From: Candidatus Thorarchaeota archaeon
GTDB lineage: Archaea > Asgardarchaeota > Thorarchaeia > Thorarchaeales > Thorarchaeaceae
DNA: 32,716 nucleotides
Assembly: GCA_003345595.1 (NCBI GenBank)
Contig: PRDI01000042.1
Span: 1 to 32,716 of the forward strand
Reading direction: 5' to 3'
Shown here: positions 1,036-31,829 of the stretch, piece after piece
How the letters are laid out: each line of letters begins with the position of its first letter
Position numbering within the stretch: the stretch's first letter is position 1
The notes under the pieces: generated by a model
Seen by the model: the letters and a program-made list of their open reading frames with translations, nothing else
Database searches by the model: none
What the model was told of the DNA's origin: nothing
Translations under genes and position numbers: made by a program

Positions 1036-1071
1036 TGGTAGCGGGGTCGATTTGAACGACCGGTCTCAGGG
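1036..1071 (-). repeat. tRNA-iMet 3' fragment repeat, truncated at anticodon stem
   Basis: tggtagcggggtcgatttgaacgaccggtctcaggg. Confidence 0.9.
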
Positions 1072-1188
1072 CGTTTCAGACATCTGTCATCGAAACCAAA
1101 GAGACAACATGACAGGGTGCGAGGGAGCGTCTGATGGACAGCGAATCTTCATATCTCTCAGAACACAATACGTTTTGAGGGAAGCATA

Positions 1189-1719
1189 TTGAGGCAAGGG
1201 GAGCGGTCGGATAACATCTACGTCGTCGTGGACTCATCCAAAATAGCTCGATGTGCTTGGTGCGGCACTATGGAGAGCAAGAACTGGAGGGTCTCCCGCT
1301 ATGGTCTCTACTGCTCGCATGCGTGTTCTTTTGCAGCCGGTGCGCCGGTCTTAATCTGTACGAGTGTTTTCTTTCTAGCCCTGGGTTTCGGTATAGTAAT
1401 GACGGTTGGCTGGGGGGCCGTCGGTATCTTTTCTTGTTTCCTGATGTTGGCGTTGCCTCCACTCTGCTGCGGCCTACAGGGGCAGAGCCACAGACGATCA
1501 GTGCCGAGGAATTCAATGGCAGACGAAGTCTCCCTTCATACTGCATTGCTCGCAACAGTGGCAACTTCCGTAGTGTGTCCTAGGTGTGATGCAGAACTAG
1601 ACCTGCGGAGCATCGGCAAGGACAGGGTCTATGCGTGTGGTTACTGTGGGACCACAGGTACCATCGCAGTCATCGACAAGAGCAAACAGAGAGGAAGTAG
1701 TGGCGGTCAGTCGGACTGA
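1189..1719 (+). CDS. Zn-finger/Zn-ribbon membrane protein (paralog of 28216-28743)
   Basis: CxxC...CxxxC, two TM segments, C-terminal CPRC...CGYC; TTG start and upstream gaatcttcatat shared with the paralog. Confidence 0.8.
   Translation: MRQGERSDNIYVVVDSSKIARCAWCGTMESKNWRVSRYGLYCSHACSFAAGAPVLICTSVFFLALGFGIVMTVGWGAVGIFSCFLMLALPPLCCGLQGQSHRRSVPRNSMADEVSLHTALLATVATSVVCPRCDAELDLRSIGKDRVYACGYCGTTGTIAVIDKSKQRGSSGGQSD
1697..1719 (-). repeat. Highly degenerate repeat copy at the 3' end of the Zn-ribbon gene
   Basis: gtagtggcggtcagtcggac lies at the position homologous to the copies at 26616 and 28722 (same gacaagagcaaacagagaggaagt context). Confidence 0.6.
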
Positions 1720-1722
1720 TAT

Positions 1723-2244
1723 CTACACCTTGGCTTCATCCTGCTTCTCAACACCCGGGAGTGCCAACCAGACAAGCCTACCGAGCACTCCATTTGGAAT
1801 CGATGTGATCAGGACTGATAGCCCAAACAATGCAATCGAGGCCTCTAGATTGCTGGCAAAATGCCCGCCGGGTTGGATCCCTGCCAGTAGCGCCATAAAG
1901 AGAATTACCGGCAGCTGCATGATGCAGAGGAGCGCGAACAGGGCTGCTCCATCTCTGAGAGCCACTTCGGTTTCTTGCCGTGTCTGTTTAGTCTGAGTAG
2001 ACCACAGGCGTGCGGCTATTGCAGAGTTGACTGCCCCCAGAACAATAAACCCTCCTAGGAAGCCATACACAGTCGCAATCAGGGCCAAGATCGGCTCATA
2101 GGTGAGCGGACGAGGTTCGTAGCTCAATATCCAATCAGCGGAAAAAGCAAGGGGCCAGAGTCCGGCCAACAGTACCGAGAAGAGAATCCCGTGCAGGAAG
2201 TGTCTGCCTACGGACAATGCGCCGAACATGCCTCTCTCACTCAT
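1723..2244 (-). CDS. Hypothetical membrane protein
   Basis: 173 aa, about 4 hydrophobic segments, ggtga RBS upstream. Confidence 0.7.
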   Translation of the reverse strand: MSERGMFGALSVGRHFLHGILFSVLLAGLWPLAFSADWILSYEPRPLTYEPILALIATVYGFLGGFIVLGAVNSAIAARLWSTQTKQTRQETEVALRDGAALFALLCIMQLPVILFMALLAGIQPGGHFASNLEASIALFGLSVLITSIPNGVLGRLVWLALPGVEKQDEAKV

Positions 2245-2409
2245 CGTATATCACCATGCGAATAGATGAAATACGCCCAGTACCGGAGATCGCTGTATTC
2301 CTATGAACTTTCCGTAGCAAAGGCAGGCCGTAATGACACTTCGGAAACGCTCCGTTTCCGGAAGGGACAAAGATGGGTCTTGACGGGACAGGATCCGAAA
2401 TCAGAGCCG

Positions 2410-2416
2410 TTTAATA
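2410..2416 (+). promoter_or_regulatory. Archaeal TATA box, probably for a leaderless transcript
   Basis: tttaata about 22-28 nt upstream of ATG 2438. Confidence 0.5.
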
Positions 2417-2437
2417 CCTGTAGTCCAAGGTCAACAT

Positions 2438-2641
2438 ATGCCAAGTGTTGACGTCAAGGTGTGGAAAGGCCTGTCAGAAGACGCTGCAGAGCATATCATC
2501 TCGGGGATCACCAAGGTCTTTGTTGAGTTAGGAATCCCCGAGCGAGCCGTCGAAGTCATCATTCATGAGATCCCAAAGACGCACTGGGGTGTCGGGGGGA
2601 GGCCCGCCTCCAAAGCGATGGCAGACGCACGGCCTCCCTAA
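2438..2641 (+). CDS. 4-oxalocrotonate tautomerase family protein
   Basis: 67 aa, catalytic Pro after Met, VEVIIHEIPKTHWGVGG motif. Confidence 0.9.
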   Translation: MPSVDVKVWKGLSEDAAEHIISGITKVFVELGIPERAVEVIIHEIPKTHWGVGGRPASKAMADARPP

Positions 2642-2932
2642 GCACTCCCTCAGTAGTCACCCCGGCTTGCTCACAGTTAGCAGTAGGTTGCATCCGGTGT
2701 GAAGTTCCTGTAGGCTGCTGCAAGAGGAATGGAGAGAGAGGTCCACGCTTTCCAGTTCACTTCCAGCGAAACACAATTCCTAGTGGCTGGTGCAGGAAGA
2801 CGGCGGCGTGAGGTCCATTCTCTTAATACCACTCCCCAGCAGGTTACGCTCTTGGACAGTGTACGAAATCGAGAGGTTTCTTCTATGCTCTCGATGACAG
2901 ATGGCCGTAAGGAGGAGCAGTTGGAAAGGAGA

Positions 2933-2974
2933 TTGCAGCGGGCCCTCGATTTGAACGACCGGTCTCAGGGTATG
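2933..2974 (-). repeat. tRNA-iMet 3' fragment repeat, T-arm/acceptor half of a split copy
   Basis: ttgcagcgggccctcgatttgaacgaccggtctcagggtatg; the other arm resumes at 3191. Confidence 0.85.
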
Positions 2975-2988
2975 CAACAGCTGCGTAG

Positions 2989-3147
2989 AAGTTGGACAAT
3001 CTTGGACATTTTCGAGTAGGGGCTTGAATAGCTCGAATCAGACGTCTCTTTGAGGCTGGCTCGACACAATCCAGCCTCAAGGAGTACGACCCCAGTGCCG
3101 TTTCTGGGAGGACAAAGACTCCTGTGTCCAACTCTGTCCAACTTACA
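2989..3147. mobile_element. Non-coding palindromic MITE-like element inside the split repeat
   Basis: Inverted repeats aagttggacaatcttggaca (2989-3008) and tgtccaactctgtccaactt (3125-3144), 17/20 match; central 14-bp stem 3046-3059/3071-3084. Confidence 0.55.
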
Positions 3148-3190
3148 ATGAACGGCTCTACTCATCCAGCTCCGATTGAGCTCTAGAAGC

Positions 3191-3204
3191 GAGCCCTGCG
3201 GGAT
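3191..3204 (-). repeat. Detached anticodon-stem arm of the split repeat
   Basis: gagccctgcgggat followed by the usual tatatgat flank. Confidence 0.75.
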
Positions 3205-3292
3205 TATATGATGGTTGCAGAAGATACTCTGTCTGCACTGCTGTCTCACCTTCTGCACCATGATTGTCATCCTTTGCCATTCGTGGCGGCAG

Positions 3293-4162
3293 CTATTCGC
3301 GCAAGAAATCGACCATTACCCTGTTGACCTCCTCCGGGTAGTCACGCTGAGTCCAGTGCCCGGCTCCCTCGATGATGTGCAGCTTGGCATTCGGGATACG
3401 CCCCGCTGCTTCTCTGGCATACTTCACGGGCACACCGATGTCCGCCGTTCCGTGCACGATTAGCGTCGGTACCTTAATCTCGCCCAAGCGCGGCACGTAG
3501 CAAGTCTTCACCCCTGTCCAGCGCGCCTCGTCCCTCTGGAACTGCGCGAACATCTTCCCGGCATTTGGATTCCTGAGCGCCACCACTGCCTCATCGATCA
3601 GCGCTTCAGTCAATGAAGCCGGGTCGCGGATAATTGTCTTCATCGTTTCTCTGATCATCCAGCGCGAAGAGCGGACCATCGCATAGAAGAGATTGTTGAC
3701 CAGCGGCAGCTTGACTAGTAGAACGCTGAAGAAGTGAGCCGATGTCTTGTCCTGCAAGCCGTAGGTCCCAATCAAGATGAGCTTTTCAACACGCTCCGGG
3801 TGCGCCAGCGTGAAACCCAACGCTGCCCCCCCGCCCATCGAGATGCCTGCCAGCGACGCCTCTTTCAACCCCCAAGCCTCCAGCAGACCTGTAGTGACCT
3901 CTATCAGCAGTTCCTGTGTGAATGGCTTTGGAGGAGGGGGACTGCTGCCATAGCCCGGCCAGTCCGGCAGGTACACTTGGAACCCTGCCTCGACCAGCGC
4001 CGGGACGGTATCCCGCCAAGACAGCATGGCCGAGTCCACTCCGCCACCGTGCAGCAACACCACTGGCTTGCCTTTCTTTCCACCGAAGAGATAGGTATTG
4101 ACCTCATATCCCCCCGGGAGGGATACGGTTTCCTGCTGTCCCTGCGGCACGGATATTATCAT
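3293..4162 (-). CDS. Alpha/beta fold hydrolase
   Basis: LLHGGG, DWPGYGSS, nucleophile GISMGG, HGTAD, catalytic GAGHW. Confidence 0.95.
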   Translation of the reverse strand: MIISVPQGQQETVSLPGGYEVNTYLFGGKKGKPVVLLHGGGVDSAMLSWRDTVPALVEAGFQVYLPDWPGYGSSPPPPKPFTQELLIEVTTGLLEAWGLKEASLAGISMGGGAALGFTLAHPERVEKLILIGTYGLQDKTSAHFFSVLLVKLPLVNNLFYAMVRSSRWMIRETMKTIIRDPASLTEALIDEAVVALRNPNAGKMFAQFQRDEARWTGVKTCYVPRLGEIKVPTLIVHGTADIGVPVKYAREAAGRIPNAKLHIIEGAGHWTQRDYPEEVNRVMVDFLRE

Positions 4163-4321
4163 TTGGTTCTCCTACCTTGGTATGTTTTCGCGTCTTGCGT
4201 CCTCTCTTCTCTCCAGTCTTCATGCATTCACTGGTGCACGGGAGTCGCTACCTTTTCTGTATTGTCGTTCGGTGAGAATCGGGACGGTGATTGTTTCGTC
4301 CACGAGATGATGAGAATGATA

Positions 4322-4376
4322 TGGTAGCGGGGGTCGATTTGAAAGACTGATCTCAGGGTCATGAGTCCTGCGGGAT
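4322..4376 (-). repeat. tRNA-iMet 3' fragment repeat, full length
   Basis: tggtagcgggggtcgatttgaaagactgatctcagggtcatgagtcctgcgggat. Confidence 0.95.
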
Positions 4377-4492
4377 GATATGAGCTTGTAAGCGGCAGCT
4401 GCGATTGCACCATGAATTCGTGGTTTCTTGGTTGCGTGTTTCACGGGGATTTATACAGCAGAAGAACGATCCGAAGACTGAGGGGTTCCCGA

Positions 4493-4612
4493 ATGGAATC
4501 AGAAGAAATCATGAAGACTGTAGATGATGTAATCGAGCTAGTGAAGGACGTACCTGAGCCGTGCCGTCTGACAGATTTCCCGACCAGACCCCCAGAAGAC
4601 ACAGGAGGATAA
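4493..4612 (+). CDS. Possible small protein (39 aa, MESEEIMKTVDD...)
   Basis: tttata box near 4450 and gagggg RBS-like sequence; no recognisable family. Confidence 0.3.
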   Translation: MESEEIMKTVDDVIELVKDVPEPCRLTDFPTRPPEDTGG

Positions 4613-4725
4613 CAGTCTGCTTGCTGATTTTCACATTGACCCTACCAAGGATCCGGCTCATGATTTCCGAGAGAACTGGATATATCGGGCTTCGCGGCGC
4701 TGAAACATGCTGGAGGAACAGGTCT

Positions 4726-5574
4726 ATGAGGTATGGCATCTCAATAGAGAACTTCGGATGGTTTGGGGACATCAACCTCATGCTCAAGTTCGCGGTCGAA
4801 GCAGAGAAGGCAGGCTGGGATGGTTTCTTTCTTTGGGACCATCTTCAGATATTCCCGCCAAGCGAGGCCATGCCCTTCATAGATTCTTGGATGGCCCTCG
4901 CTTCGATAGCCGTGAAGACGAAGAAGATGCGACTTGGGCCAATGGTGACACCGCTTCCCAGAAGAAGACCGTGGAAGCTCGCGAGGGAGGCAGCGACACT
5001 GGATCATCTGTCTAATGGTCGGTTAACACTAGGTGTCGGTATTGGTGCGCCGCCTAATCCTGAGTTCGCGTCCTTCGGGGAAGACACGAATCCGCGCACA
5101 CGAGCAGAGAAGCTTGACGAAGGTCTTGATGTGATCACTGGACTATGGTCTGGTGAAGCGTTCTCCTATGAGGGCAAGCACTACCATGTGCATGAGGCTC
5201 GATTCCTGCCCAAGCCCAAGCAACAGCCGCGAGTTCCCATATGGATCGGCGGAGGGTGGCCGAAGACAAGCCCTTTCAGACGGGCGGCCAAGTACGATGG
5301 TGTAGTACCTGTTCACACAGACTGGCCCAAGAGAATAACCACTGCCAATCTTGAAGAGATACTCCGACTAATTGAGTCTGAGAGAGGAAATCTTCGTGAC
5401 TATGATGTTGCAGTATCAGGTCACACTGCCGGCAACGATTCCACGGAAGACCGCGAACTCATGCAGTCTTGGATTGATGCTGGCGCGACTTGGTGGCTGG
5501 AGGAAATCGAGAGTCTGCGTGGCGGCCTCGAAGAGCTGAGAGAGAGGGTCGAAAGAGGTCCTCCTCAAGCTTGA
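4726..5574 (+). CDS. LLM-class (luciferase-like) flavin-dependent oxidoreductase
   Basis: AEKAGWDGFFLWDH, LDHLSNGRLTLGVG, PKPKQQPRVPIWIGG; start moved to ATG 4726 after a ggagga RBS. Confidence 0.93.
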   Translation: MRYGISIENFGWFGDINLMLKFAVEAEKAGWDGFFLWDHLQIFPPSEAMPFIDSWMALASIAVKTKKMRLGPMVTPLPRRRPWKLAREAATLDHLSNGRLTLGVGIGAPPNPEFASFGEDTNPRTRAEKLDEGLDVITGLWSGEAFSYEGKHYHVHEARFLPKPKQQPRVPIWIGGGWPKTSPFRRAAKYDGVVPVHTDWPKRITTANLEEILRLIESERGNLRDYDVAVSGHTAGNDSTEDRELMQSWIDAGATWWLEEIESLRGGLEELRERVERGPPQA

Positions 5575-5642
5575 GAGCAAACACGCTGGGCTCTGCCATA
5601 ACTATGGAAACCCTTTCGAACCATGACCAATCAGTTGAGAAG

Positions 5643-5697
5643 TGGTATCGGCGGTCGATCTGAACGACCGATTTCAGGGTCATGAGCTCTGCGGGAT
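5643..5697 (-). repeat. tRNA-iMet 3' fragment repeat, full length
   Basis: tggtatcggcggtcgatctgaacgaccgatttcagggtcatgagctctgcgggat. Confidence 0.95.
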
Positions 5698-5717
5698 TGT
5701 ATAATCTGGACGGCCCG

Positions 5718-6437
5718 CTATGCTGGTATCTGTCCTTGCTCCATGGTCCTAACGTATCTACGCCTCGAGAAGTACGTGAAAAGACCGAGTTGGAGGAGGC
5801 CTAAGGCAGCGGAAGCCAATAGAAACACGCTTGACAGTCGGGCAAGATTGATGTAGCCCACGAGCGCTAGGTCCCCGAAGATGAGCAGGTACGCAACGCG
5901 CTGAGCCAATACCCAGACGACGATGGTCAAGACGAGCACGGAATAGGAGGAGTTCGTTATCGTATTATTACGGATTGTTCTACCCACCCGAAGGAATGGA
6001 ATCGCAACGGTACAGTAGAAACCCGCCACGAATGACGAGCTCGCGAGTAGGGACTGAGTGATACTCTCATAGATGCCCAGCATTAGCACGATGGTGAGCA
6101 CTCCTCCAATAAGCAGTGTCACGAACCATGCATGGTCCCACAGTTTCCAGTAGAAAGGTTCCTGGAGTTCCCGCGCATTGGCGCCGGCAGTTTCAGGACT
6201 TGCTCTCCCTGGCACTTGAGTAGAGGGTGACTGCCTGACCCCCCTCTCGCGAAGAATCTCGCCCACTTCGGTGTAGAGGCCAAAGAGAATCAGGCCAAAG
6301 AACAAGATCTGAACGGTGATCATTCCGTCTACGTCGAATCCGAAGCGGAACAAGTCTGGCGAGAAGATTCCGCCGAGTACGCCCGCGGCCAGTGTGGTCG
6401 CAGCGAGCAGCCACGATGACTTCGCTTCCTCATTCAC
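5718..6437 (-). CDS. Multi-pass membrane protein, cassette family A (1 of 3)
   Basis: Paralogous to 21057-21824 and 23237-23953 (TLAAG.LG..S..LF..G..VDG.I, AQR.AYL); probable GTG start at 6437 after gggagg. Confidence 0.8.
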   Translation of the reverse strand: MNEEAKSSWLLAATTLAAGVLGGIFSPDLFRFGFDVDGMITVQILFFGLILFGLYTEVGEILRERGVRQSPSTQVPGRASPETAGANARELQEPFYWKLWDHAWFVTLLIGGVLTIVLMLGIYESITQSLLASSSFVAGFYCTVAIPFLRVGRTIRNNTITNSSYSVLVLTIVVWVLAQRVAYLLIFGDLALVGYINLARLSSVFLLASAALGLLQLGLFTYFSRRRYVRTMEQGQIPA

Positions 6438-6564
6438 GTCCTGCGTCCTCCCTCGTTTCCAATCTTCATGCATCTGCTGGTCTGAGGGACCAATTGGCTT
6501 TTCTGCATTGTCTTTCGATGAGTCTGGAACGGGGTCACGCTGTCCTTGAGCTGAGGAAAAGAGA

Positions 6565-6615
6565 TGGTATCGGGCGGCCGATCTGAACGACCAATCTCAG
6601 GGTCATGAACCCTGC
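6565..6615 (-). repeat. tRNA-iMet 3' fragment repeat
   Basis: tggtatcgggcggccgatctgaacgaccaatctcagggtcatgaaccctgc. Confidence 0.93.
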
Positions 6616-6841
6616 AGACGCGATGAGATTTGCTAGCGCACTCGTCAGTGACACACGCGACCCGCGTCTGCGCGATAGACATGGGTAATGCATCATGGCA
6701 GACATAGTGCAACGGCAGGAGCAAGTTCCCTGGTAATGGGAAACCGTCCTGACTTCGAAGTCATCCAATGTGGATAACGAAGGAGCCATAATGGCTGCTC
6801 TGAGCCATTCTCTTTTACGTATCTCAGCCTCAACCAAAGAC

Positions 6842-7330
6842 ATGACACAGGTGGATACACGAGCTGATGAGCTCACCGAGTTGATCAGACAAATACGCGG
6901 TGCTCGGCCAAATCCAAAGAAGCTGAAAGCTCTGCTTGAGAAGTATGAGAGAGAGTTCGGGTTTGAGGCAGAGAAACAGGCTCTAGATATTATAGCGAAG
7001 ACAACCACAAGAGCATGGTCTAAACTCGCGGAGGAAAGAGAGAGTCGCGGCATTGATGACCTTCTTGATATGCTGTGGGGGTCTTTTGAACAAGCAGGGG
7101 GTGTCTTTACTGTTGAAAGAACTGAGGACTCTGCGCAGATTCACTGCACGAGATGCCCAATAGCAGATTCGTATCTCAGCATTGGTAAACCCAAGTACGG
7201 GCTAATATTCCACTGTAGTACGGATCCACACATTGTTGCAGGGTTCAATCCGGAGATAGAGTTCAGAGTAACGAAGAGGCTCATGAGTGGGGATGACTGC
7301 TGTGATCACTATTATCGCTTGAGAAGGTGA
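6842..7330 (+). CDS. L-2-amino-thiazoline-4-carboxylic acid hydrolase-like family protein
   Basis: CP.A....G....G..F.C..D......FNPEIEF...K.LM.GDDCCDH pattern; start uncertain (6770-6842). Confidence 0.8.
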   Translation: MTQVDTRADELTELIRQIRGARPNPKKLKALLEKYEREFGFEAEKQALDIIAKTTTRAWSKLAEERESRGIDDLLDMLWGSFEQAGGVFTVERTEDSAQIHCTRCPIADSYLSIGKPKYGLIFHCSTDPHIVAGFNPEIEFRVTKRLMSGDDCCDHYYRLRR

Positions 7331-7451
7331 ACTGCTCCAATTATCCGCGTTTTCAGAGAACCTCGGTGTATCAACAGGTTCACGAGTGGGAAGTTCTCCA
7401 CAAGACGACCGTATTCGAGTCTGACAATACTTAGAAAACCGAGAAAGGAAA

Positions 7452-7506
7452 TGGTAGCGGGGGTCGATCTGAACAACCGGTTTCAGGATCATGAGCCCTG
7501 CGGCAT
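7452..7506 (-). repeat. tRNA-iMet 3' fragment repeat, full length
   Basis: tggtagcgggggtcgatctgaacaaccggtttcaggatcatgagccctgcggcat. Confidence 0.93.
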
Positions 7507-7767
7507 TGTGTGTTGGAGGCCGGTGCCGTAGCTATTCACGTTGGGGTGAATCTGGAGCCCATGTTGAGTGATTACTATAGACTGCGTGGGTGGAACCTAG
7601 AAAACGGACTTCCCACGGACGATACATTGCGAAGACTATCTCTCAAGTGGACTCGTACCAGCTTCCTACGGAAGTAGCCAATCCCAGCCGACCGAATAGG
7701 ATATAGACAAATGCCCGTATCTGGAAATAGGCATTTTAAGCATGCCATCAGGGAGAGCTCTCAGATA

Positions 7768-19537: not shown

Positions 19538-19544
19538 GGCCCCA

Positions 19545-22046: not shown

Positions 22047-22064
22047 TTTCCGAGCTTCTGTACA

Positions 22065-23057: not shown

Positions 23058-23160
23058 TGTTCTGATGTGTTGCGCAGATATTAGCCTACCGACAGTCTGT
23101 GAATGAACTGAGTATGAACCTCACTGATTCTGGTGGCTCGAACGGACTCCTTGGTATGAG

Positions 23161-23216
23161 CGGTAGCGGGCGGTCGATCTGAACAACCGATCTCAGGGTC
23201 ATGAGCCGCGCGGGAT
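23161..23216 (-). repeat. tRNA-iMet 3' fragment repeat, full length
   Basis: cggtagcgggcggtcgatctgaacaaccgatctcagggtcatgagccgcgcgggat. Confidence 0.95.
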
Positions 23217-23236
23217 GGTATAATCTGGCCAGTAGT

Positions 23237-23953: not shown

Positions 23954-24132
23954 GCTTCCTACCCTCCGTCATGTCCGGTTTTCGAGCACCTGTCAGTGCG
24001 TAGGTGCCATGCCTTTTCTCCATTATTGTTCAGAGAGAATCGTGACGGCAACTGCGCCCATGATATCACACATTCGGTTGACATAGTCTGCACCCTAGAC
24101 CACCGCGATCGCAGCGAAGCAGCAGAAGGAAC

Positions 24133-24188
24133 TGGTAGCGGGGGGTCGATCTGAACGACCGATCTCAGGGTCATTAGCCCTGCGGGAT
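24133..24188 (-). repeat. tRNA-iMet 3' fragment repeat, full length
   Basis: tggtagcggggggtcgatctgaacgaccgatctcagggtcattagccctgcgggat. Confidence 0.95.
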
Positions 24189-24413
24189 TGTATGAGAAGA
24201 TAAGGCCATCATTCGAATTGTTCGCATCGAGTTGAGGGGGTTTCTCAAGAGCACATTGGCGGGGACGCTGAGAAGGGTGCGGGGGCAGGAATCTGGTTCT
24301 CGGTGAAAGATGGTCTCTCAATGTTCGGGTGCCTCTGCCATTCCGAGGTCAAGCAACAGAAATAGGCATTCATATTACTGAACCGGCAATCCAGTGAGCG
24401 TTATCAACGCAAC

Positions 24414-24692: not shown

Positions 24693-24717
24693 CAACAAAG
24701 CAGGAATTGGAAGAAGA

Positions 24718-24752
24718 TGGTGGCGGGGGTCGATCTGAACGACCGATCTCAG
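24718..24752 (-). repeat. tRNA-iMet 3' fragment repeat, truncated
   Basis: tggtggcgggggtcgatctgaacgaccgatctcag. Confidence 0.93.
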
Positions 24753-24837
24753 CGGTCCTCCTTTGATATGACAAAACCTATTTTCGGAAAGGACAGCATA
24801 CAGATGGTAACCACACTATGTGTGAAGCGTGGAGGAA

Positions 24838-26511
24838 ATGTCGAGTTTCATCATAAAGGGAATGAGGACGTTTCTGCTGCTCGCCCTAGTCGTCATGCTC
24901 CAATTCTCAAGTGGCAATCTGGTCCCCCAAACCATTCAAACATCGAGCGTTGGAGCAGCAGAACTGGGATACCTACATCACGATCCGATATCAATCATGG
25001 AGAATCAGGACTTCCTATCTCAAGGATGGCCCGGCAACGGAACAATAGATGAACCATATCTATTGGAGAATCTTGAGATGGACTGCGATGATGAAACTGG
25101 CATCTTCGTAGCGAACACCACAGTCTTCTTCGAAATCAGCAGCTGCAGGTTTACTGCGACTGATGGGGGTCAGGGACTATGGCTTATTAACGTAACAAAC
25201 GGTGAAGTCATGAATTGCATATCTGAACGCTGCCATTGGGATGTCTGGAACTCTTCGCAGTGCAGAATAGAGTCAACTGATGCATCGAATCATGCAGACC
25301 TCACACTATGGGGGTGCACCAACTGCTCAGCTGTTGGCAACAGCTATACCGGGGGTGGCCTGATTTATGATACTTGCACGGACTGCAAGTTTATCGGAAA
25401 CACTGTAATAGGAAGTGGAGCCGAGGGAATCTATCTCATCAGAGCCGCCAACTGCTCAGTAATAGAGAACGAATTCGCAGAAAACGACGTAGGCATAGGT
25501 CTACTGGGATCAAATGGCACTCTGATTAGCCACAACAACATACATGATAATGTGCACTATGGAGTTGAGCTCTACTCCTGCGGAAGCACTAGATTGATCG
25601 AGAACTCATTCAAGAATGATGGAGTCGTCCTGCACTACTGGGGCTGGGGGTGGGACGGTCATGCAATCTCTGGGCAGGATTTCGTGAATGTTAATCACGT
25701 CTTTCAGGACAATGTCGTCAATGGAAAGCCGCTAGGCTTCTTTAAGAATGTGTGTGGAGATGCAATTGACGGAAGCCCATACGGGCAAGTCATTCTGGTG
25801 AACTGTAGCAGCCTAACTATTGACCATGGGGTAATCGCCAATACGTCCATTGGCGTTCAGATTCTCTTCAGTGACAACTGCACTGTGACGCACATGACTA
25901 TGGCTAATTGCAGTGTATCTGGGGTAGTGGTTGAGGAATCGAACTACACTAGTGTGTTGGATTGTATCGTTTCCAATAATGTGGACGATGGTATAATGTT
26001 TGAGCGCTCCTTCGACGCTCTAATTGCCAATTGCTCAGTATCTGGAAACCGCGCGGGCCTAAGGCTATTGTTTTCAGGGCGCTCTACTACCCTCAACAAT
26101 ACTCTGACCCTGAACACATGGGGAGCTGAGTTCTACTCCACCTCAGACTCTATGTTCGTGAACAATACAGTTCTGTACAATAAGGGTGGAGTACATCTAG
26201 CCGACGACTGCGACAATAACGTGATCTATGGTAACTCAATAGGATGGAACGAATGGTGCAATGCCCAGAGCGACAACTACGACAATCAATGGGATGACGG
26301 GATAAGCAGAGGTAATAGGTGGAGTGACTATGATGGCTCTGGCGTCTACGAAATCAATCATATAGAGGTGGACCGATTCCCTGAACTGCTGGGGGAACGT
26401 CTCCCGTCCATCGATTTGGGCCTGATTAGCATTGGCGTGTTTGCGGGGGTCATAATCGTGGCTGCTATTGTTCATGTAGGCAGGTCACGCAGAATCTCCC
26501 ATGAAGTGTGA
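24838..26511 (+). CDS. NosD/CASH-like right-handed beta-helix surface protein
   Basis: Signal peptide, GWPGNGT..EPY..ENL, PbH1-like repeats, N.WDDG..GN.WSDY.G.G.Y, C-terminal TM; ggagga RBS. Confidence 0.9.
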   Translation: MSSFIIKGMRTFLLLALVVMLQFSSGNLVPQTIQTSSVGAAELGYLHHDPISIMENQDFLSQGWPGNGTIDEPYLLENLEMDCDDETGIFVANTTVFFEISSCRFTATDGGQGLWLINVTNGEVMNCISERCHWDVWNSSQCRIESTDASNHADLTLWGCTNCSAVGNSYTGGGLIYDTCTDCKFIGNTVIGSGAEGIYLIRAANCSVIENEFAENDVGIGLLGSNGTLISHNNIHDNVHYGVELYSCGSTRLIENSFKNDGVVLHYWGWGWDGHAISGQDFVNVNHVFQDNVVNGKPLGFFKNVCGDAIDGSPYGQVILVNCSSLTIDHGVIANTSIGVQILFSDNCTVTHMTMANCSVSGVVVEESNYTSVLDCIVSNNVDDGIMFERSFDALIANCSVSGNRAGLRLLFSGRSTTLNNTLTLNTWGAEFYSTSDSMFVNNTVLYNKGGVHLADDCDNNVIYGNSIGWNEWCNAQSDNYDNQWDDGISRGNRWSDYDGSGVYEINHIEVDRFPELLGERLPSIDLGLISIGVFAGVIIVAAIVHVGRSRRISHEV

Positions 26512-26545
26512 TTCGACTTCATTCTGCGATTCAATTGCGCTCTGC

Positions 26546-26615
26546 TCTATGCGTGTGGTTGCTGTGGAGCCACCGCAACTATCACGGTCGTCGACAAGAG
26601 CAAACAGAGAGGAAG
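26546..26615 (+). pseudogene. 3' remnant of the Zn-ribbon membrane protein gene
   Basis: ctatgcgtgtggttgctgtggagccacc...gacaagagcaaacagagaggaag aligns with ~1629-1697 and ~28653-28721. Confidence 0.75.
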
Positions 26616-26696
26616 TGGTAGCGGGGGTCGATTTGAACGACCGGTTTCGGGGCTCTACTCTCCAGCTCCGATTGAGCTCGGGAACTGAGCCCTGCG
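26616..26696 (-). repeat. tRNA-iMet 3' fragment repeat split by a ~33-bp insert in the anticodon loop
   Basis: First half 26616-26652, insert 26653-26685, then tgagccctgcg 26686-26696. Confidence 0.88.
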
Positions 26697-26832
26697 ACAC
26701 GCAATGAGTGGGAATAGCACAGCTGTCACTGACGCGAGCCGCGTGCGTCTGCGTCAAAGGCATCGAAGATACGTCATCACACAACTGAGGGGCAACTTTC
26801 ATATCATGGAAAGCCCTCTGCTGAGTTCAGGA

Positions 26833-27912
26833 ATGAGGGATTCATTGGGCGTCATTCAGTCTCTTATGTTGGCTGGGCAGGAGTGCTTTGCACAAGGGAT
26901 GTTCAGAGAAGCAGAGGCTGCATACCGCCGTGTGACAGAGCTGGACCCCGCACATGCAGGAGCGTGGTCCAATCTCGGCACCATCCTTGGCCTTCAGAAC
27001 AGACCCATAGAGGCGGAGGCTGCATGCCGCCGTGCAACGGAGCTGAACCCCACAGACGCGGTGGCATGGTACAACCTTGGGACGGCATTAGGCCATCAGA
27101 ACAGATACCCGGAGGCCGAGGTTGCATCCCGCCGTGCTGTAGAGCTGAACCCCACGCACACAGGAGCATTGTTCAATCTGGGGACTTCCCTTGAACGCCA
27201 GAAGAGATACCCAGACGCCGAAACTGCCTGTCGCCGTGCGACCGAACTGAACCCCAAGTATGCAGAAGCATGGGCAGAACTCGGAACCGTTCTCTTCGAA
27301 CAGCACAAATTCCCTAGCGCCGAAGCTGCATTTCGCTGCGCAATCGAGCTCGACCCCACAGATGCAGATTCATGGTATAATCTCAGCACCCTCCTTAGTC
27401 GTCAGAGCAGACACCGAGAGGCTGAGGCTGCGGCTCGCCGCGCGACAGAGCTCAATCCCACACATGCAGGATCATGGTTCAGTCTCGGAGTCGCGCTTGG
27501 CGGTCAGAATAGAATCCCCGAAACCGAGGTTCCGTACCGCCGCGCAATTGAGCATGATCCCAAGTTGCCATTGGCATGGACCGGTCTCGGAAACGCTCTC
27601 GCCTTTCAGAATAGAATCTCTGAGGCCGAGGCTGCGTACCGCCGCGCAATCGAGATTGACCCCAGATTGACGGTGGCGTGGACTGGTCTCGGTAATTCGC
27701 TCTCCGACCAGAAGAGGCACTCGGAGGCTGAAACGGCGTTTCGTCGTGCGACCGAGCTAGACCCCCGTCATCCATTGGGCTGGTTAGGTCTAGGGGGCGC
27801 GCTGTTCTATCAGAATAGACGCTCGGAGGCAGAAGCTGCGTTCCGCCGCACAACAGATTTGGAACCTAGGCTGCGCGGGGTGGTTGAACGTTTCATGCGG
27901 ACGCCCAAGTAA
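26833..27912 (+). CDS. Tetratricopeptide repeat protein (1 of 2)
   Basis: About ten 34-aa repeats AW.NLG..L..Q.R..EAEAA.RRA.EL.P; start 26833 gives 1080 bp, the same as the paralog; tttcatat box at 26797. Confidence 0.93.
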   Translation: MRDSLGVIQSLMLAGQECFAQGMFREAEAAYRRVTELDPAHAGAWSNLGTILGLQNRPIEAEAACRRATELNPTDAVAWYNLGTALGHQNRYPEAEVASRRAVELNPTHTGALFNLGTSLERQKRYPDAETACRRATELNPKYAEAWAELGTVLFEQHKFPSAEAAFRCAIELDPTDADSWYNLSTLLSRQSRHREAEAAARRATELNPTHAGSWFSLGVALGGQNRIPETEVPYRRAIEHDPKLPLAWTGLGNALAFQNRISEAEAAYRRAIEIDPRLTVAWTGLGNSLSDQKRHSEAETAFRRATELDPRHPLGWLGLGGALFYQNRRSEAEAAFRRTTDLEPRLRGVVERFMRTPK

Positions 27913-28085
27913 GCAGTAAAGTCAGGCCAGTTCTATCTCTTCTGTGTATGAGAAAGCACACTGGTTTCTAGTAGTCCAGAAGTTGTGTCAAAAGGCCGTG
28001 GCGTACTATGGGGAGGTACTATGATTGGCGTTTGACATGACGTTGAATCCAATGGCCTGAATCTGCTGAACTCAGAAGACGAAGA

Positions 28086-28140
28086 TTGTAGGGGGGGTCG
28101 ATTTGAACGACCGATCTCAGGGTCATGAGCCTTGCGGGAT
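28086..28140 (-). repeat. tRNA-iMet 3' fragment repeat, full length
   Basis: ttgtagggggggtcgatttgaacgaccgatctcagggtcatgagccttgcgggat. Confidence 0.95.
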
Positions 28141-28215
28141 TAGTATGATTTAGAGAGGCCTCAGATAACGAATCTTCATATCCCTCCAAGTACAATAGGT
28201 CTTGAGGACTGTGTC

Positions 28216-28743
28216 TTGAGGGAAGGAGAGCCATCGGACAGAATCTATGTCGTCGTGGATTCATCTATGATATCTCGGTGCGAGTGGTGTGGCGTCATGG
28301 AGAGCGAGAGCCGGCGCTTCTGCTCAACTGAGTGTGCGTTTGCAGCTGGCGCACCGGGAATGATCCCAATCCTCATGGTCGGTGCTGTGCTGTCTTCTCT
28401 ACTTATCTTGAATGTAGGCCAACCCACGTACATGAGTACACCTGGCTACCTTAAACTCCTCTCGCTGGTGCTGCCGATACCACTACTTATTATGGCCATT
28501 CAGGGAATCGAGCACAGAAAATCAGTGCCAAGAAACTCAAGGAGAAACGACGCCCCTCTTGATACAGCCCTACTCAGAACTGTGTCTACATCTGTAGCCT
28601 GTCCCAGATGTGACGCCAACATGGACGTGAGGGGCATCGGCAAGGACGGGGTCTATGTGTGTGGCTACTGTGGAGCCACCGGGACAGTCGCTGTCATCGA
28701 CAAGAGTGAACAGAGAAGAAGTGGTAGCGGGGGGTCGATCTGA
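28216..28743 (+). CDS. Zn-finger/Zn-ribbon membrane protein (paralog of 1189-1719)
   Basis: Same Cys pattern; last codons and TGA stop lie inside the repeat. Confidence 0.82.
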   Translation: MREGEPSDRIYVVVDSSMISRCEWCGVMESESRRFCSTECAFAAGAPGMIPILMVGAVLSSLLILNVGQPTYMSTPGYLKLLSLVLPIPLLIMAIQGIEHRKSVPRNSRRNDAPLDTALLRTVSTSVACPRCDANMDVRGIGKDGVYVCGYCGATGTVAVIDKSEQRRSGSGGSI

Positions 28744-28762
28744 ACGACCGATCTCAGGGTCA
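28722..28762 (-). repeat. tRNA-iMet 3' fragment repeat, truncated in anticodon loop
   Basis: tggtagcggggggtcgatctgaacgaccgatctcagggtca. Confidence 0.95.
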
Positions 28763-28788
28763 GAAGATGGGGTACTCTTGGTAAGTTT

Positions 28789-29346: not shown

Positions 29347-29543
29347 GAATGCCCTACTCACACGTGGTTTCAGGCTTCTCAACGAAGATGGGTTTTCAGA
29401 CTGCAGGCCTTGTTTGATGTCACATCGTCATCTCTCCACTACCGGCACTGCCTGCGTGGTTAGTTCTCGGAAACTAGCCACTCGATCAGAAAAGATACTC
29501 ACAGGCAGAGCCTGCGCTAGTCGTACGATAGGGGTTTTCGTCA

Positions 29544-29569
29544 ATCTCAGGGTCATGAGCCCTGGGGGA
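29544..29569 (-). repeat. Half repeat: anticodon arm only
   Basis: atctcagggtcatgagccctggggga; no T-arm or acceptor part. Confidence 0.8.
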
Positions 29570-29701
29570 CACAATGAGCCACACTAGCGCAGTTATGAGC
29601 GATGCGAACGATGCATGTCTGCGTCAAGGGCATCAACAATGCGTCATCACAGTATTAGGACACAAATTTCATATCATGGAGAGCCGGATATGTACGTAGG
29701 C

Positions 29702-30781
29702 ATGAGGAGTCCGTCGGGCAACAAAAGCTCTCTCATAGAGACTGCGGTGCTACTTTTCGAACAAGGGCAGTATGAACTGGCCGCGGCTGTGTTCCGCCGC
29801 TTGATTGAGCTCGACCCCAAAGATGCAGGAGCTTGGTCCTCCTTAGGAACCCTTCTCCTCCTTCTGGAAAGATACCCAGAGACTGAGGCTGCGTGCCGCC
29901 GCACAGTCGAGCTCAACCCCAGAGACGTAGCAGCATGGTCCAATCTCGGCATCGCGCTTGCCCGTCAGAGCAGAGACCCGGAGGCCGAAGCTGCCTTACG
30001 CCGCGCGATCGAGCTGGACTCCACAAATGAAGCAGCATGGTACAATCTAGGAATTATGCTTGGTGATCAGAACAGACCCTCAGAAGCCGAGGCTGCTCTT
30101 CGTCGTGTGGTCGAGCTCGACCCCAAGAATGCAAAAGCGTGGTTCCGCCTCGGAGCCGAGCTTGCCCGTCTGGGCAGACACCCGGAGTCTGATGCGGCAT
30201 GCCGCCGCGCAATCGAGCTCGATCCCAGGAATACAGACGCTTGGGTCAATTTAGGGACCGCACTTGTTCATCAGAACAGAAACCGAGAGGCTGAGGCTGC
30301 CTTTCGCCGCGCGGTAGAGTTAGACCCCGCAGACGCAAGAGTATGGTACAATCTGGGGACCGCACTTCTCAATCAGAACAGATACTCAGATGCCGAGGCT
30401 GCTCTTCGTCGTGCCATCGAGCTTGACCCCAAGAATACGAGAGCGTCGTCCAATCTCGGGGCCGCCCTTCTCGGCCAGAATAGACTTTCAGAGGCCGAGG
30501 CTGCGTGCCGCCGCGCAATCGAGCTCGATTCCACAGATGAGGGTGCGTGGTTCAATCTCGGCTACGCGCTTGTCCGTGAGGAGAAATGTCCAGAGGCTGA
30601 GGCTGCTCTTCGTCGTGCCATCGAGCTCAAACCCACAGATGCAGCAGCGTGGTTCAATCTCGGTGCCGCGCTTCTCGGTCAGAAAAGGCGCTCAGAGGCC
30701 GAAACTGCCCTGCGCCGTGCGACAGAATTGGATCCCGCCCGGCGTCAGGCAGCCGATTATCTCATGCGCGCAATCAATTAG
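29702..30781 (+). CDS. Tetratricopeptide repeat protein (2 of 2)
   Basis: Same TPR consensus, 1080 bp, tttcatat box at 29667. Confidence 0.93.
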   Translation: MRSPSGNKSSLIETAVLLFEQGQYELAAAVFRRLIELDPKDAGAWSSLGTLLLLLERYPETEAACRRTVELNPRDVAAWSNLGIALARQSRDPEAEAALRRAIELDSTNEAAWYNLGIMLGDQNRPSEAEAALRRVVELDPKNAKAWFRLGAELARLGRHPESDAACRRAIELDPRNTDAWVNLGTALVHQNRNREAEAAFRRAVELDPADARVWYNLGTALLNQNRYSDAEAALRRAIELDPKNTRASSNLGAALLGQNRLSEAEAACRRAIELDSTDEGAWFNLGYALVREEKCPEAEAALRRAIELKPTDAAAWFNLGAALLGQKRRSEAETALRRATELDPARRQAADYLMRAIN

Positions 30782-30807
30782 ACTGTAGAGTCTGTACAGG
30801 AAGGAGA

Positions 30808-30844
30808 TGGTAGCGGGCGGTCGATCTGAACGACCGATCTCAGG
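30808..30844 (-). repeat. tRNA-iMet 3' fragment repeat, truncated at anticodon stem
   Basis: tggtagcgggcggtcgatctgaacgaccgatctcagg. Confidence 0.95.
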
Positions 30845-30967
30845 ATGTTCTAGGCACTTGCCACCTAGGTCTGAGCGTTCATGCGATGAGAGAGCAGGAA
30901 CAGTTCTCTGGTATGAGGGATTCTGTGAATAGCGTGCAGAAGGCACAAGTCCGTGTGAATCGAGTGG

Positions 30968-31705
30968 CTAGTCTTGTTCTGCTTGGGAACGCGTCTTGAA
31001 CTCCTCGAGATTCTCGGGCGGCCAACCCCTAGGAGTCTGATATCCCCTTACGAATCTGAAATCGCACATTGGACTGCCACACGCGCGTGTCTGGGTGCGC
31101 ATGAAGCCAACTCCCAGCGCCCGCATTCTGATGAAGTCTCCTAAACAGGCGTAGGGGGCGGCCTCCTCAGCATGATGTTCTCCTATCAACTTGAGCCAGC
31201 CACACTCCACGAGATTCAGTCCCCAGTCGAACGATTTGCCATCTCCTTCAACGAACTCTCCAACCCAGTCCCCCGGATACTGGCGCCTCTGAGTTTCGGC
31301 CGCCCATCGCTTCCAGCCTTGTTTCATATGACCGGAAAACGCCATCCATCGAAACATCCGCTTCTTTATTCCTGAAAGTGAGTCATAATACGCTTCACCC
31401 ACTTCGTACATCAACTGGGCGAATTCCCTGACTTCCATCCCGACACTCTTGCAGGCTTTGTAGAACGCGAGGGTCTGAGCAGACTGGAGCATCAGCGCCC
31501 AGGAGAGGCTCTTTTTGCCGCCCAAGTAGGGCAGACTCGGAAGAAGTGCTTCAAGTTCCTCCCGCGATCTCCTAGTCAGGTTGCTCAGGGTTTCTTCACT
31601 CAAGTGATTCTGTCCGACCTCGGCTGCCACGAGCACCATTTTCTCAAACTGATCCATTATCTCATTTTTGTATCGAATGTAGTAGTCATGCGAGTCTTCG
31701 CTCAT
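30968..31705 (-). CDS. L-2-amino-thiazoline-4-carboxylic acid hydrolase-like family protein (long form)
   Basis: LPYLGG, YPGDWVGEFVEGDG..FDWG....ECG..K, RTQT.A.G...CDFRF; start 31705 or 31771. Confidence 0.82.
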   Translation of the reverse strand: MSEDSHDYYIRYKNEIMDQFEKMVLVAAEVGQNHLSEETLSNLTRRSREELEALLPSLPYLGGKKSLSWALMLQSAQTLAFYKACKSVGMEVREFAQLMYEVGEAYYDSLSGIKKRMFRWMAFSGHMKQGWKRWAAETQRRQYPGDWVGEFVEGDGKSFDWGLNLVECGWLKLIGEHHAEEAAPYACLGDFIRMRALGVGFMRTQTRACGSPMCDFRFVRGYQTPRGWPPENLEEFKTRSQAEQD

Positions 31706-31802
31706 CCCAGAACCACGAGCGCAATTCCGCGACTGTCTGCTCATAAGGCTGTTGAGAACAGCAACCGTCACTCCTCTTGGGTTTCCCGCCAGATTCCGCT
31801 AC

Positions 31803-31829
31803 GGGGTCGATTTGAACGACCGATCTCAG
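31803..31829 (-). repeat. tRNA-iMet fragment repeat, T-arm core only
   Basis: ggggtcgatttgaacgaccgatctcag. Confidence 0.88.

Follow-up and report, generated by a model that had tools for sequence, protein, structure and literature searches.

A gene-cassette array built on copies of an initiator tRNA 3' end in a Thorarchaeota genome, and a LAGLIDADG-fold and winged-helix protein pair as its candidate machinery

The DNA described here is the whole of contig PRDI01000042.1 from an uncultured wetland archaeon, a Candidatus Thorarchaeota archaeon, a stretch of 32,716 nucleotides which we call the window. It carries an array of small gene cassettes bounded by copies of the 3' end of the genus's own initiator tRNA gene (tRNA-iMet), and these copies, referred to below as repeats, are the breakpoints at which cassettes are exchanged. 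In anatomy and behaviour the window is part of a site-anchored cassette array that acts like an integron built from other parts, and there is a substantial chance that its machinery is of a new type. On balance we consider it probable that the window is the body of a hypervariable array at a fixed locus downstream of the single initiator tRNA gene, and that the exchange is carried out by a LAGLIDADG-fold protein and a winged-helix protein encoded at the head of such arrays.

The genome under study (G000) is metagenome-assembled and comprises 129 contigs with a total of 2.73 Mb, a G+C content of 52% and a completeness of 83%. Its contig C42 is identical with the window, which has the same base composition as the rest of the genome; other C numbers denote further contigs of G000. 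G001, G002 and G003 are congeners, other G numbers stand for related genomes, and L numbers for stretches carrying arrays or related loci.

Anatomy of the array and origin of the repeats

A 24-nt pattern of the repeat core, allowing up to three mismatches, matched the window 22 times, always on the plus strand, and gave no match in 100 shuffles. A profile made from the repeat copies detected 24 co-oriented copies of 45-75 nt each; in addition, a decayed remnant of the left half of a copy lies at 1688-1719. The spacing between copies ranges from 584 to 3187 bp with a median of 1053, and each unit holds one to three unrelated genes on either strand. On a second contig, C22, the profile found 7-9 copies, every one on the minus strand; no credible copy was found elsewhere among the 129 contigs. 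Orientation is uniform within each of the two contigs. The genes for a membrane protein with two Zn ribbons run into a repeat, which supplies their last codons and the stop, in all five copies or remnants seen. When decayed repeats were sought at five internal unit boundaries, two scored at the 99th percentile of background and the rest at background level.

Much of this had been anticipated by an initial annotation of the window, made from the sequence alone, which described many diverged, co-oriented copies of a repeat, units of about 0.6-3.2 kb (most near 1 kb) with one to three unrelated genes, and Zn-ribbon genes with stops inside repeats. Each of these points is borne out, and the repeats are confined to two contigs in one orientation each; it had named a genome-wide scatter in both orientations as the finding that would speak against an array. 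The interval that it assigned to the array, 1036-31829, covers the array body; the head with the tRNA gene and the far end lie on other contigs or are unassembled.

In reverse complement, the repeat corresponds to positions ~21/38-76 of the initiator tRNA of the genus itself, followed by about 10 nt of trailer. Read on the minus strand, the consensus begins with an arm of about 10 nt that is not tRNA sequence (TCATACAAT-like) and continues with CCCG (3' strand of the D stem), CAGGG CTCATGA CCCTG (anticodon arm with the anticodon CAT), AGATC (variable loop), GGTCG TTCAGAT CGACC (T arm) and CCCCGCT A CCA (3' strand of the acceptor stem, discriminator and CCA) to end with the trailer, CTTCTTCTC. 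About half of the copies in the window are of a long form reaching back to tRNA position ~21, and the rest are of a short form that starts at 37-43. Several marks of an initiator tRNA are present: the anticodon is CAT, three G:C pairs form the foot of the anticodon stem, and the acceptor end is of the A1:U72 type. Position 37 is polymorphic among array copies (A or G).

G003 and sister genera possess intact, intron-bearing tRNA-iMet genes with which the repeat can be aligned; this, together with the anticodon and the initiator features, upholds the earlier claim that the sites derive from tRNA-iMet. The G003 gene (L004, 4598-4740) has two introns, located in the D loop and at 37/38. Its CAGGG/CCCTG stem is identical with that of the repeat, its T arm differs by one T-loop base and its acceptor strand by one base. 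Among sister genera (loci L007, L008 and L133, 5908-5974) the gene has one intron in G009 and G024 and in genus g7, and an intron-less anticodon loop in G021 and in genus g4. The introns, which are of the archaeal kind and occupy both canonical and non-canonical sites, and the A1:U72-type initiator mark the organism as an archaeon. Because about 10 nt of trailer, absent from mature tRNA, are included, the repeat is a DNA copy of the end of the lineage's initiator tRNA gene. ARAGORN reported no tRNA in the window or at any array head, intact intron-bearing genes included, and Rfam gave no match for the repeats or the intact tRNA-iMet genes.

Two copies in the window, at 2924 and 26607, retain the anticodon-loop intron. 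In contigs from wetland metagenomes a long-form copy occurs in a version that contains a 29-nt intron-like insert and continues into the window's sequence on its right from 24172. In runs X1, X3 and X6 such an insert is seen at window positions 24172 and 28123, in copies that have no intron in the window, at depths near that of the main form. These population contigs suggest that the array copies are polymorphic for the presence or absence of an intron.

Locus and distribution

Arrays are present in all four genomes of the genus. Each of 28 other sampled genera has at most one repeat copy, which is the intact tRNA gene in the two loci read (G009 and G024). In G003 the array is 22 kb long, has 16 repeats and starts directly behind the intact two-intron tRNA-iMet gene; its far flank is syntenic with contig C90 of G000 at 60-91% protein identity. 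From this synteny we take the array of G000 to end at C90 and to include at least C42 and C22, that is at least 60 kb with at least 33 repeats; its head is unassembled. The arrays of G003 and G000 have only three protein families in common. Positions 13346-13684 of the window (a repeat and the end of a PIN-toxin gene) are 93% identical to positions 1-340 of C22, and hence the assembly was broken within a duplicated cassette.

A pattern scan of public metagenome contigs recovered 116 stretches (677 kb) with 285 repeats, none of mixed orientation. The full set of related arrays amounts to 804 kb with 345 repeats, again without a stretch of mixed orientation. In the metagenome arrays the median unit is 1.3 kb long and half of the units contain one gene.

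Exchange of cassettes at the repeats

Homology blocks were defined by an identity of at least 88%, and an interior block end was counted as lying in a repeat if it fell within 15 nt of one. On this basis 105 of the 228 interior ends (46%) are in repeats, which with the margin make up 3.8% of the DNA (p = 2.5e-84). Differences between related genomes consist of whole units and break at the repeats, the pattern that the initial annotation had expected from a comparison of strains. One contig of G002 carries five cassettes of G000 which have been reordered while their orientation relative to the repeats has been kept, and three of the five are bounded by repeats at one or both ends in both genomes. 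The VapBC cassette at 19131-20194 recurs from repeat to repeat, at 97.8% identity and between other neighbours, in L071, L091 and L029; the ATC-hydrolase cassette at 30805-31829 recurs in the same manner at 96% identity in L072. Alternative arrangements were also found within populations. A 735-nt contig from wetland run X6 joins 31632-31804 via a repeat to 16395-16956, and run X4 contains the same joint. Other joints in the wetland runs also end in repeats and are ambiguous. Some Logan contigs have joints that go back, for instance from 28760 to 28092; circles, tandem duplications and paralogous loci are all possible sources of such joints, and neither they nor gaps in depth were used.

To map the point of exchange within the repeat, we paired stretches that agree in one flank of a repeat (identity of at least 94%) but differ in the other, and compared the two copies column by column (Table 1). 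Everything in the tRNA fragment from the 5' edge up to and including the T arm moves with the upstream cassette (in the tRNA sense), and the trailer moves with the downstream one. The switch lies in the zone of the acceptor 3' strand and CCA, which we take to be roughly the last 15-25 nt of the tRNA sequence because the sample is small and non-independent (21 and 16 unique pairs).

Table 1. Mismatch frequencies between repeat copies that share one flanking cassette
Repeat segment	Upstream cassette (tRNA sense) shared	Downstream cassette shared	Random pairs (background)
Trailer	0.42	0.05	0.45
CCA + acceptor	0.10	0.06	0.13
T arm	0.016	0.04	0.07
Variable loop + 3' anticodon stem	0.05	0.12	0.15
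Anticodon loop to arm	0.04	0.36	0.44

Conservation of the repeat reaches at least 0.9 (0.9-0.99) exactly over exon 3, positions 38-76 (39 nt), and drops outside. The stems show no covariation: changes are almost all one-sided, with three compensatory cases among 279 distinct copies, and the idea of a folded, attC-like site was rejected for this reason.

Two further elements accompany repeats. An element of about 200 nt occurs three times at 85-89% identity, at 2964-3163 in the window and at 3835-4096 (L001) and about 16850-17041 (L002) on C22. It always adjoins or sits inside a repeat; in the window, the copy at 2924-3214 has it between exon 3 and the intron-like segment. Either a small mobile insert or a large tRNA-type intron could account for it. 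At four repeats a conserved segment of about 90 nt is found 30-120 nt further left, upstream of genes on the minus strand (4187-4276, 6433-6522, 21880-21917 and 24009-24046); it may be a shared promoter or leader, or an additional arm of the site.

The gene pair at the array head

At all 12 array heads that were recovered, two genes lie on the tRNA strand directly upstream of the tRNA gene. They are never found inside the arrays, only upstream of the first repeat. The larger protein has up to 806 residues, and its last 340 residues contain two LAGLIDADG-like motifs, ..IIESDGS.. and ..MIAQDGC.., in which both acidic residues are kept. It has no sequence match in Pfam or the PDB. When its structure model (pLDDT 78) was compared with known structures, the best matches were all LAGLIDADG proteins, with I-Tsp061I at an E value of 1.9e-5 and further matches to PI-PfuI, the Tli VMA intein endonuclease, I-WcaI, PI-SceI and I-DmoI. 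As modelled, the protein has the features by which the LAGLIDADG fold is recognised, namely a double alpha-beta-beta-alpha-beta-beta-alpha unit with two helices that end in acidic residues. The second gene encodes a tandem winged-helix protein of 217 residues with a long C-terminal helix.

In two more genera, represented by G021 and G017, tRNA-iMet is likewise preceded by orthologues of the pair. A second copy of the tRNA 3' part lies 902 bp beyond tRNA-iMet in G021; in G017 only a tRNA-iMet-like 3' part was detected. Within the family the pair occurs in 15 of 24 genomes with up to seven copies per genome, and several paralogues adjoin other repeat arrays (L135, 2784-12971; L131, 10907-15667; L134, 5216-8902). 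The repeats beside these paralogues are a 25-nt sequence resembling an acceptor end (six copies), the 3' end of the partner gene itself (three copies) and a tRNA promoter with the tRNA 5' end (two copies). We infer that the head pair is the candidate machinery for cassette exchange. Its tie to the window rests on congeners and metagenome contigs, because the array head of G000 is unassembled.

Search for recombinases and other mobility enzymes

G000 has no match to PF00589 (tyrosine recombinase), PF16795 (the archaeal SSV type), PF00239 (resolvase) or PF00078 (reverse transcriptase). G001 and G002 have no match to PF00589, and G002, at 93% completeness, lacks tyrosine and serine recombinases alike. 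G003 encodes one of each on contigs away from its array; its tyrosine recombinase was rejected as the array enzyme, having no homologue in G000 and no repeat near it. Twenty tyrosine recombinases of related archaea were used to build a local model; its best E value over six-frame translations of the 804 kb of arrays was 2.2, compared with 2.5e-51 for a control locus. Across the family, a tyrosine recombinase was detected in 10 of 24 genomes and in none of several genomes that are 97-98% complete. No reverse transcriptase was found in the four genomes of the genus, and viral contigs contained no match to the long-form site.

No tyrosine-recombinase domain was found in any array, in keeping with the initial annotation, which had described the units as gene-sized and integrase-less. 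It had also looked to an integrase of the XerC/D, SSV or pNOB8 type acting in trans; none was found at the array ends or anywhere in G000. Its overall reading largely stands as regards array anatomy, tRNA-iMet-derived sites and unit exchange at the repeats, and is conjectural as regards a recombinase.

XerA-like tyrosine recombinases give strong matches (E around 1e-40) in most other families of the phylum; in the family considered here (f1, G001-G024) the matches are weak and sporadic, in 10 of 24 genomes. This scarcity raises the question of how chromosome dimers are resolved in the family.

Some arrays carry nucleases as cargo. One is an HNH_3 endonuclease whose C-terminal half is highly conserved and whose tail is acidic; it is encoded in the tRNA direction by a cassette at 2666-3682 of L049 and at 18455-19507 of L004 (G003); this cassette is the first of the array in one population and lies mid-array in G003. 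A PD-(D/E)XK (REase-ARP) nuclease cassette, also in the tRNA direction, is found at 1460-2476 of L119. Both are sporadic (five stretches and one stretch) and absent from G000 and the window; either is a possible alternative nuclease. Other recurrent array proteins were rejected as mobility enzymes. The Zn-ribbon protein has two Zn ribbons around two membrane helices and family matches at noise level only; two recurrent families of 240 and 267 residues resemble membrane or surface proteins and have no family or PDB match. The most recurrent family in the metagenome arrays (337 residues) is a surface protein, and the genes of the first G003 cassette have no family match. The conserved candidates at the head, with their LAGLIDADG and winged-helix folds, point to break-and-repair rather than classical site-specific recombination.

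Mechanism of cassette exchange

The explanation that we favour, and hold to be somewhat better than an even chance, combines a fixed-locus array, site-specific exchange of units and the head pair as the engine. Read in the tRNA direction, a unit consists of a short pyrimidine-rich trailer, one to three cargo genes in either direction and a copy of the tRNA 3' part, always with exon 3 (38-76) and often reaching back to ~21 with the ~10-nt non-tRNA arm. Units would be gained, lost and exchanged singly by a site-specific event with its junction in the last ~15-25 nt (acceptor 3' strand and CCA). Because the units carry no recombinase, the enzyme would act in trans, and the best candidate is the LAGLIDADG-fold and tandem winged-helix pair encoded upstream of the tRNA. 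The nuclease might cut at the tRNA 3' end. The broken end, carrying tRNA sequence, would then invade a donor repeat with the help of the homology that the conserved exon-3 block offers; the donor might be imported DNA, a sister chromosome or another array. The donor's trailer, cargo and next repeat would be copied by synthesis, and repair would close on the short microhomology of CCA plus trailer.

Break-and-repair of this kind would explain the fixed orientation, the retention of exon 3 and of the pyrimidine-rich trailer, and the persistence in every unit of a tRNA block 5' of the junction that the restoration of the tRNA does not require. The intron-less copies require no RNA step, since intron-less alleles occur in a sister genus (G021), and the intron-bearing versions in the window and the population suggest gene conversion with the resident tRNA gene. 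Observation thus covers the anatomy, the fixed locus, the modular cassettes, the junction zone, the failure to detect recombinases, and the fold and constant position of the head genes; that these genes do the work, and by this repair pathway, is inferred.

Several observations weigh against this explanation. LAGLIDADG folds also occur in DNA-binding proteins that do not cut, such as WhiA, which is itself among the structural matches. G000, G001 and G002 have no copy of the LAGLIDADG family, the array head being unassembled in G000, and C42 is tied to one head stretch (L021) only via a chain of shared cassettes. Some multi-gene units and some unit differences end away from recognisable repeats. 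No cleavage site, circle or empty site was observed, the joints that go back in Logan contigs being ambiguous, and in the junction map the conserved core offers few informative columns. Finally, metagenome-assembled genomes often lose viruses and plasmids, and a trans-acting integrase could be missing from them.

Such an integrase is the alternative that survives best, though we regard it as rather unlikely. A tyrosine (or serine) integrase encoded elsewhere, on a virus, a plasmid or an unassembled island, would integrate small circular integrase-less elements at the tRNA 3' end, much as in cis-mobilisable elements, satellites or tycheposon remnants, and the LAGLIDADG and winged-helix pair would be a mere conserved neighbour. 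Tyrosine integrases are known to make sharp junctions at the 3' ends of tRNA genes, and crossing over there by a trans-acting integrase fits the junction seen here equally well. The long-form copies share the ~10-nt non-tRNA arm, as copies of one attP would, and orientation relative to the repeats survives reordering. However, neither a recombinase domain nor a remnant of one was found in the 804 kb of arrays, and the long-form site is on no viral contig. G003 does possess one recombinase of each type, but its integrase has no homologue in G000; and while incomplete assembly might account for the lack in G000, at 83% completeness, G002 at 93% has neither type, and a tyrosine recombinase is present in only 10 of the 24 family genomes and in none of several at 97-98%. 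A trans-acting integrase is disfavoured only because none has been found.

It might also be supposed that no dedicated enzyme is involved and that the repeats, as relics of ancient integration, recombine by homology over their 40-70 nt through unequal crossing-over, loop-out deletion and double crossovers with imported DNA. We consider this improbable. The 39-nt core is indeed 90-99% conserved across repeats, paralogous cassettes and duplications are frequent, and the coexistence of intron-bearing and intron-less copy versions suggests gene conversion with the tRNA gene. But general homologous recombination should place crossovers all along the 39-nt core, and the narrow junction speaks against it; the T arm and everything 5' of it go with one cassette and the trailer with the other. 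The core is kept far better than its flanks, though cassette proteins have diverged to about 50% identity, and this points to selection on the site. Nor would homologous recombination explain why each new unit gains a tRNA fragment.

Very little speaks for an RNA-mediated origin, in which mature spliced tRNA-iMet would prime or be copied by a reverse transcriptase and the cDNA be inserted with neighbouring sequence: it would account for intron-less copies that end at CCA (most long-form copies lack the anticodon-loop intron of the genus's gene), and for short forms starting near position 37/38, but the copies extend ~10 nt into the 3' trailer of the gene, which is missing from mature tRNA, some retain the intron, the gene of a sister genus with its intron-less anticodon loop shows that intron-less DNA templates exist, and no reverse transcriptase was found in the four genomes of the genus.

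Cassette content of the window

The repeats and cassettes of the window are listed in Table 2. Overall the cargo comprises two toxin-antitoxin pairs (PIN with a MazE-type antitoxin and PIN with VapB), each in a cassette of its own, two MFS transporters, two TPR, two NosD-like and two ATC-hydrolase-like proteins and several membrane proteins of no assigned function. Several cassettes are paralogues of each other. The paralogous TPR genes, for example, contain 102-nt (34-aa) tandem repeats, seven to nine units each (26911-27822 and 29780-30793); their proteins are 52% identical and they lie in separate cassettes. Composite units can be seen in simpler form elsewhere: the metagenome stretch L034 has an extra repeat between the two genes of the unit at 10444-13037, and the DUF488 gene of the unit at 16537-18985 is a single-gene cassette in G002. 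The array of G002 also encodes a protein 92.5% identical to the tautomerase-like protein (2438-2641) of the three-gene cassette at 1189-2641.

VapBC-type cassettes stand here in an array that is anchored on an initiator tRNA, and enterobacterial VapC toxins cleave initiator tRNA in the anticodon loop. This is probably a coincidence.

Table 2. Repeats and cassettes of the window
Feature	Positions	Strand	Remarks
DUF4256	264-866	-	
Repeat, short form	1028-1088	-	exon-3 part of tRNA-iMet, CCA and trailer; tRNA sense on minus strand
Three-gene cassette	1189-2641		two-Zn-ribbon membrane protein (1189-1719, +), membrane protein (1723-2244, -), 4-oxalocrotonate tautomerase-like protein (2438-2641, +)
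Decayed repeat remnant	1688-1719	-	trailer/acceptor half only; is the 3' end of Zn-ribbon gene 1189-1719; score at 99th percentile of background
Split repeat	2924-3214	-	exon-3 part (2924-2968), intron-like segment and ~175-nt insertion, exon-2 part with arm motif (3189-3214)
Alpha/beta hydrolase	3293-4162	-	
Repeat, long intron-less form	4314-4386	-	tRNA ~21-76, trailer and ~10-nt non-tRNA arm motif
Luciferase-like monooxygenase	4561-5574	+	
Repeat, long form	5637-5706	-	
Multi-pass membrane protein	5718-6473	-	one of three paralogous cassettes (others 21057-21824, 23237-23953)
Repeat, long form	6556-6625	-	
ATC-hydrolase-like protein	6770-7330	+	
Repeat, long form	7443-7513	-	
Beta-propeller (Vgb lyase/SGL) + CARDB surface protein	7711-9978	+	
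Repeat, short form	10160-10231	-	
Two-gene unit	10444-13037	+	prenyltransferase/squalene-cyclase-like repeat protein, MFS_2 transporter
Repeat, long form	13347-13409	-	
Toxin-antitoxin cassette	13615-14372	-	PIN toxin, MazE/AbrB-type antitoxin
Repeat, long form	14400-14471	-	
Two single-gene cassettes	14612-16176	-	unknown membrane/secreted proteins (14612-15202; 15373-16176), each with paralogues on C22
Repeat, short form	15306-15365	-	
Repeat, long form	16378-16444	-	diverged past anticodon loop; alternative junction to 31804 in wetland runs X4 and X6
Three-gene unit	16537-18985		MFS_1 transporter, 91-aa open reading frame, DUF488
Repeat, short form	19120-19183	-	
Toxin-antitoxin cassette	19241-19937	+	VapB, PIN (VapC)
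Repeat, long form	20133-20202	-	
Two small genes	20330-20960	+	124 aa, unknown; 72 aa, TPR
Repeat, long form	20973-21046	-	
Repeat, short form	22000-22069	-	
Leucine-rich-repeat protein	22065-23057	-	
Repeat, long form	23160-23225	-	
Repeat, long form	24125-24195	-	
Unknown, 92 aa	24414-24692	+	
Repeat, short form	24709-24776	-	
NosD/right-handed beta-helix protein	24829-26511	+	paralogue 31905-32714, truncated by contig end
Repeat with anticodon-loop intron	26607-26700	-	intron of the genus's tRNA-iMet gene; preceded by Zn-ribbon gene remnant (26545-26628)
TPR protein	26704-27912	+	102-nt tandem repeats; paralogue 29615-30781
Repeat, long form	28079-28147	-	
Two-Zn-ribbon membrane protein	28216-28743	+	single-gene cassette; stop inside repeat
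Repeat, short form	28714-28769	-	gives last 8-9 codons and TGA stop to Zn-ribbon gene 28216-28743
Unknown, 185 aa	28789-29346	+	56% identical paralogue on C114
Partial repeat	29543-29577	-	anticodon/exon-2 part only
Repeat, short form	30799-30850	-	
ATC-hydrolase-like protein	30968-31705	-	
Repeat, short form	31803-31858	-	without CCA/acceptor part

Comparison with known systems

Integrons are the textbook bacterial device for stockpiling and swapping single genes, and they rely on folded attC sites and a single family of recombinases; archaeal integrons have reportedly been described by Ghaly et al. in 2022. Like integrons, in particular sedentary chromosomal arrays and clusters of attC sites lacking integrases (CALINs), the arrays described here consist of a fixed platform followed by a long series of mostly one-gene, recombinase-less cassettes. 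One site in a single orientation bounds every cassette, and cassettes are exchanged as units. Toxin-antitoxin and paralogous cassettes are present, and here the likeness to a superintegron noted in the initial annotation is substantiated; a gene may end inside the site, and content is almost wholly different between species while the flanks are conserved. The parts, however, are different. No IntI or other tyrosine recombinase was found in 804 kb of arrays, the single PF00589 match of G003 being unlinked. The site is a sequence-conserved copy of a tRNA 3' end without covariation, whereas attC is a folded imperfect palindrome conserved in structure. Integron cassette genes are mostly co-oriented and read from a platform promoter, but in the array set 186 cargo genes point with the tRNA and 244 against it. 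The platform genes here encode LAGLIDADG-fold and winged-helix proteins.

A second comparison is with tandem islands at tRNA genes. In the tycheposons of Prochlorococcus, tandem islands lie at tRNA and tmRNA genes and partial tRNAs are scattered in a hypervariable island (bioRxiv 10.1101/2020.12.28.424599), and islands of the Islander type likewise occupy tRNA and tmRNA genes (PMC4383910). As in such islands and in CIMEs (cis-mobilisable elements), insertion is directed to the 3' part of a tRNA gene and leaves a partial tRNA copy each time, older elements are displaced outward by newer ones, and an intact tRNA gene stands at one end (in G003 and at the 12 metagenome heads; unassembled in G000). 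Tandem islands, though, hold few, large elements equipped with their own integrases or remnants of them. The units described here are about ten times smaller, with a median of 1.3 kb and up to 24 in 32 kb, and neither an integrase nor a remnant was found in the array set. Moreover, the conserved tRNA-like block lies 5' of the exchange point and hence is not needed to restore the tRNA.

A further parallel, to the combination of head pair and repeats, is offered by the WHO homing elements and HO of yeasts, in which a LAGLIDADG-type nuclease is associated with one essential gene, whose 3' fragments accumulate in a cluster through repeated events and serve as repair homology (eLife 2020, PMC7282813). 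Both systems pair a LAGLIDADG-type protein with fragments of a single anchor gene. In WHO clusters, however, the nuclease gene is cargo between the fragments, while here it lies upstream of the anchor, never inside the array, and none is in the window. The 3' fragment in WHO clusters goes with the element that lies downstream of it, the 3' end being replaced at every homing event; here it goes with the unit on its upstream side, and only the trailer goes with the downstream unit. The cargo, too, differs in consisting of ordinary accessory genes.

We found no paper on such arrays in Asgard or other archaea, which agrees with the impression of the initial annotation that no such system was on record. 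The paralogues of the head pair beside other repeats hint at something wider, though here we can only be tentative: the arrays could be a nuclease-based analogue of integrons, in which a LAGLIDADG endonuclease and its winged-helix partner cut the 3' end of an anchor and repair copies in cargo units with the anchor end as homology handle, while paralogous pairs run separate arrays on other anchors in the same genomes. If true, this would mean that the closest prokaryotic relatives of eukaryotes have a general way to capture and exchange genes without a recombinase.

The arrays also have consequences for genome annotation. They break assemblies, two contigs of G000 ending within the array, and both tRNA fragments and intron-bearing tRNA genes escape standard tRNA finders. 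As regards biology, Asgard archaea reach an integron-like outcome (a platform, dozens of one-gene cassettes, toxin-antitoxin stabilisers and near-total turnover) with different parts, and they do so in a family in which the majority of the searched genomes yielded no tyrosine recombinase. If the head pair is the engine, homing-type cutting and repair would be a new route to cassette arrays and a natural system for targeted insertion beside a tRNA gene. The array gives a handle on the movement of accessory genes in a lineage whose gene flow bears on the origins of eukaryotes.

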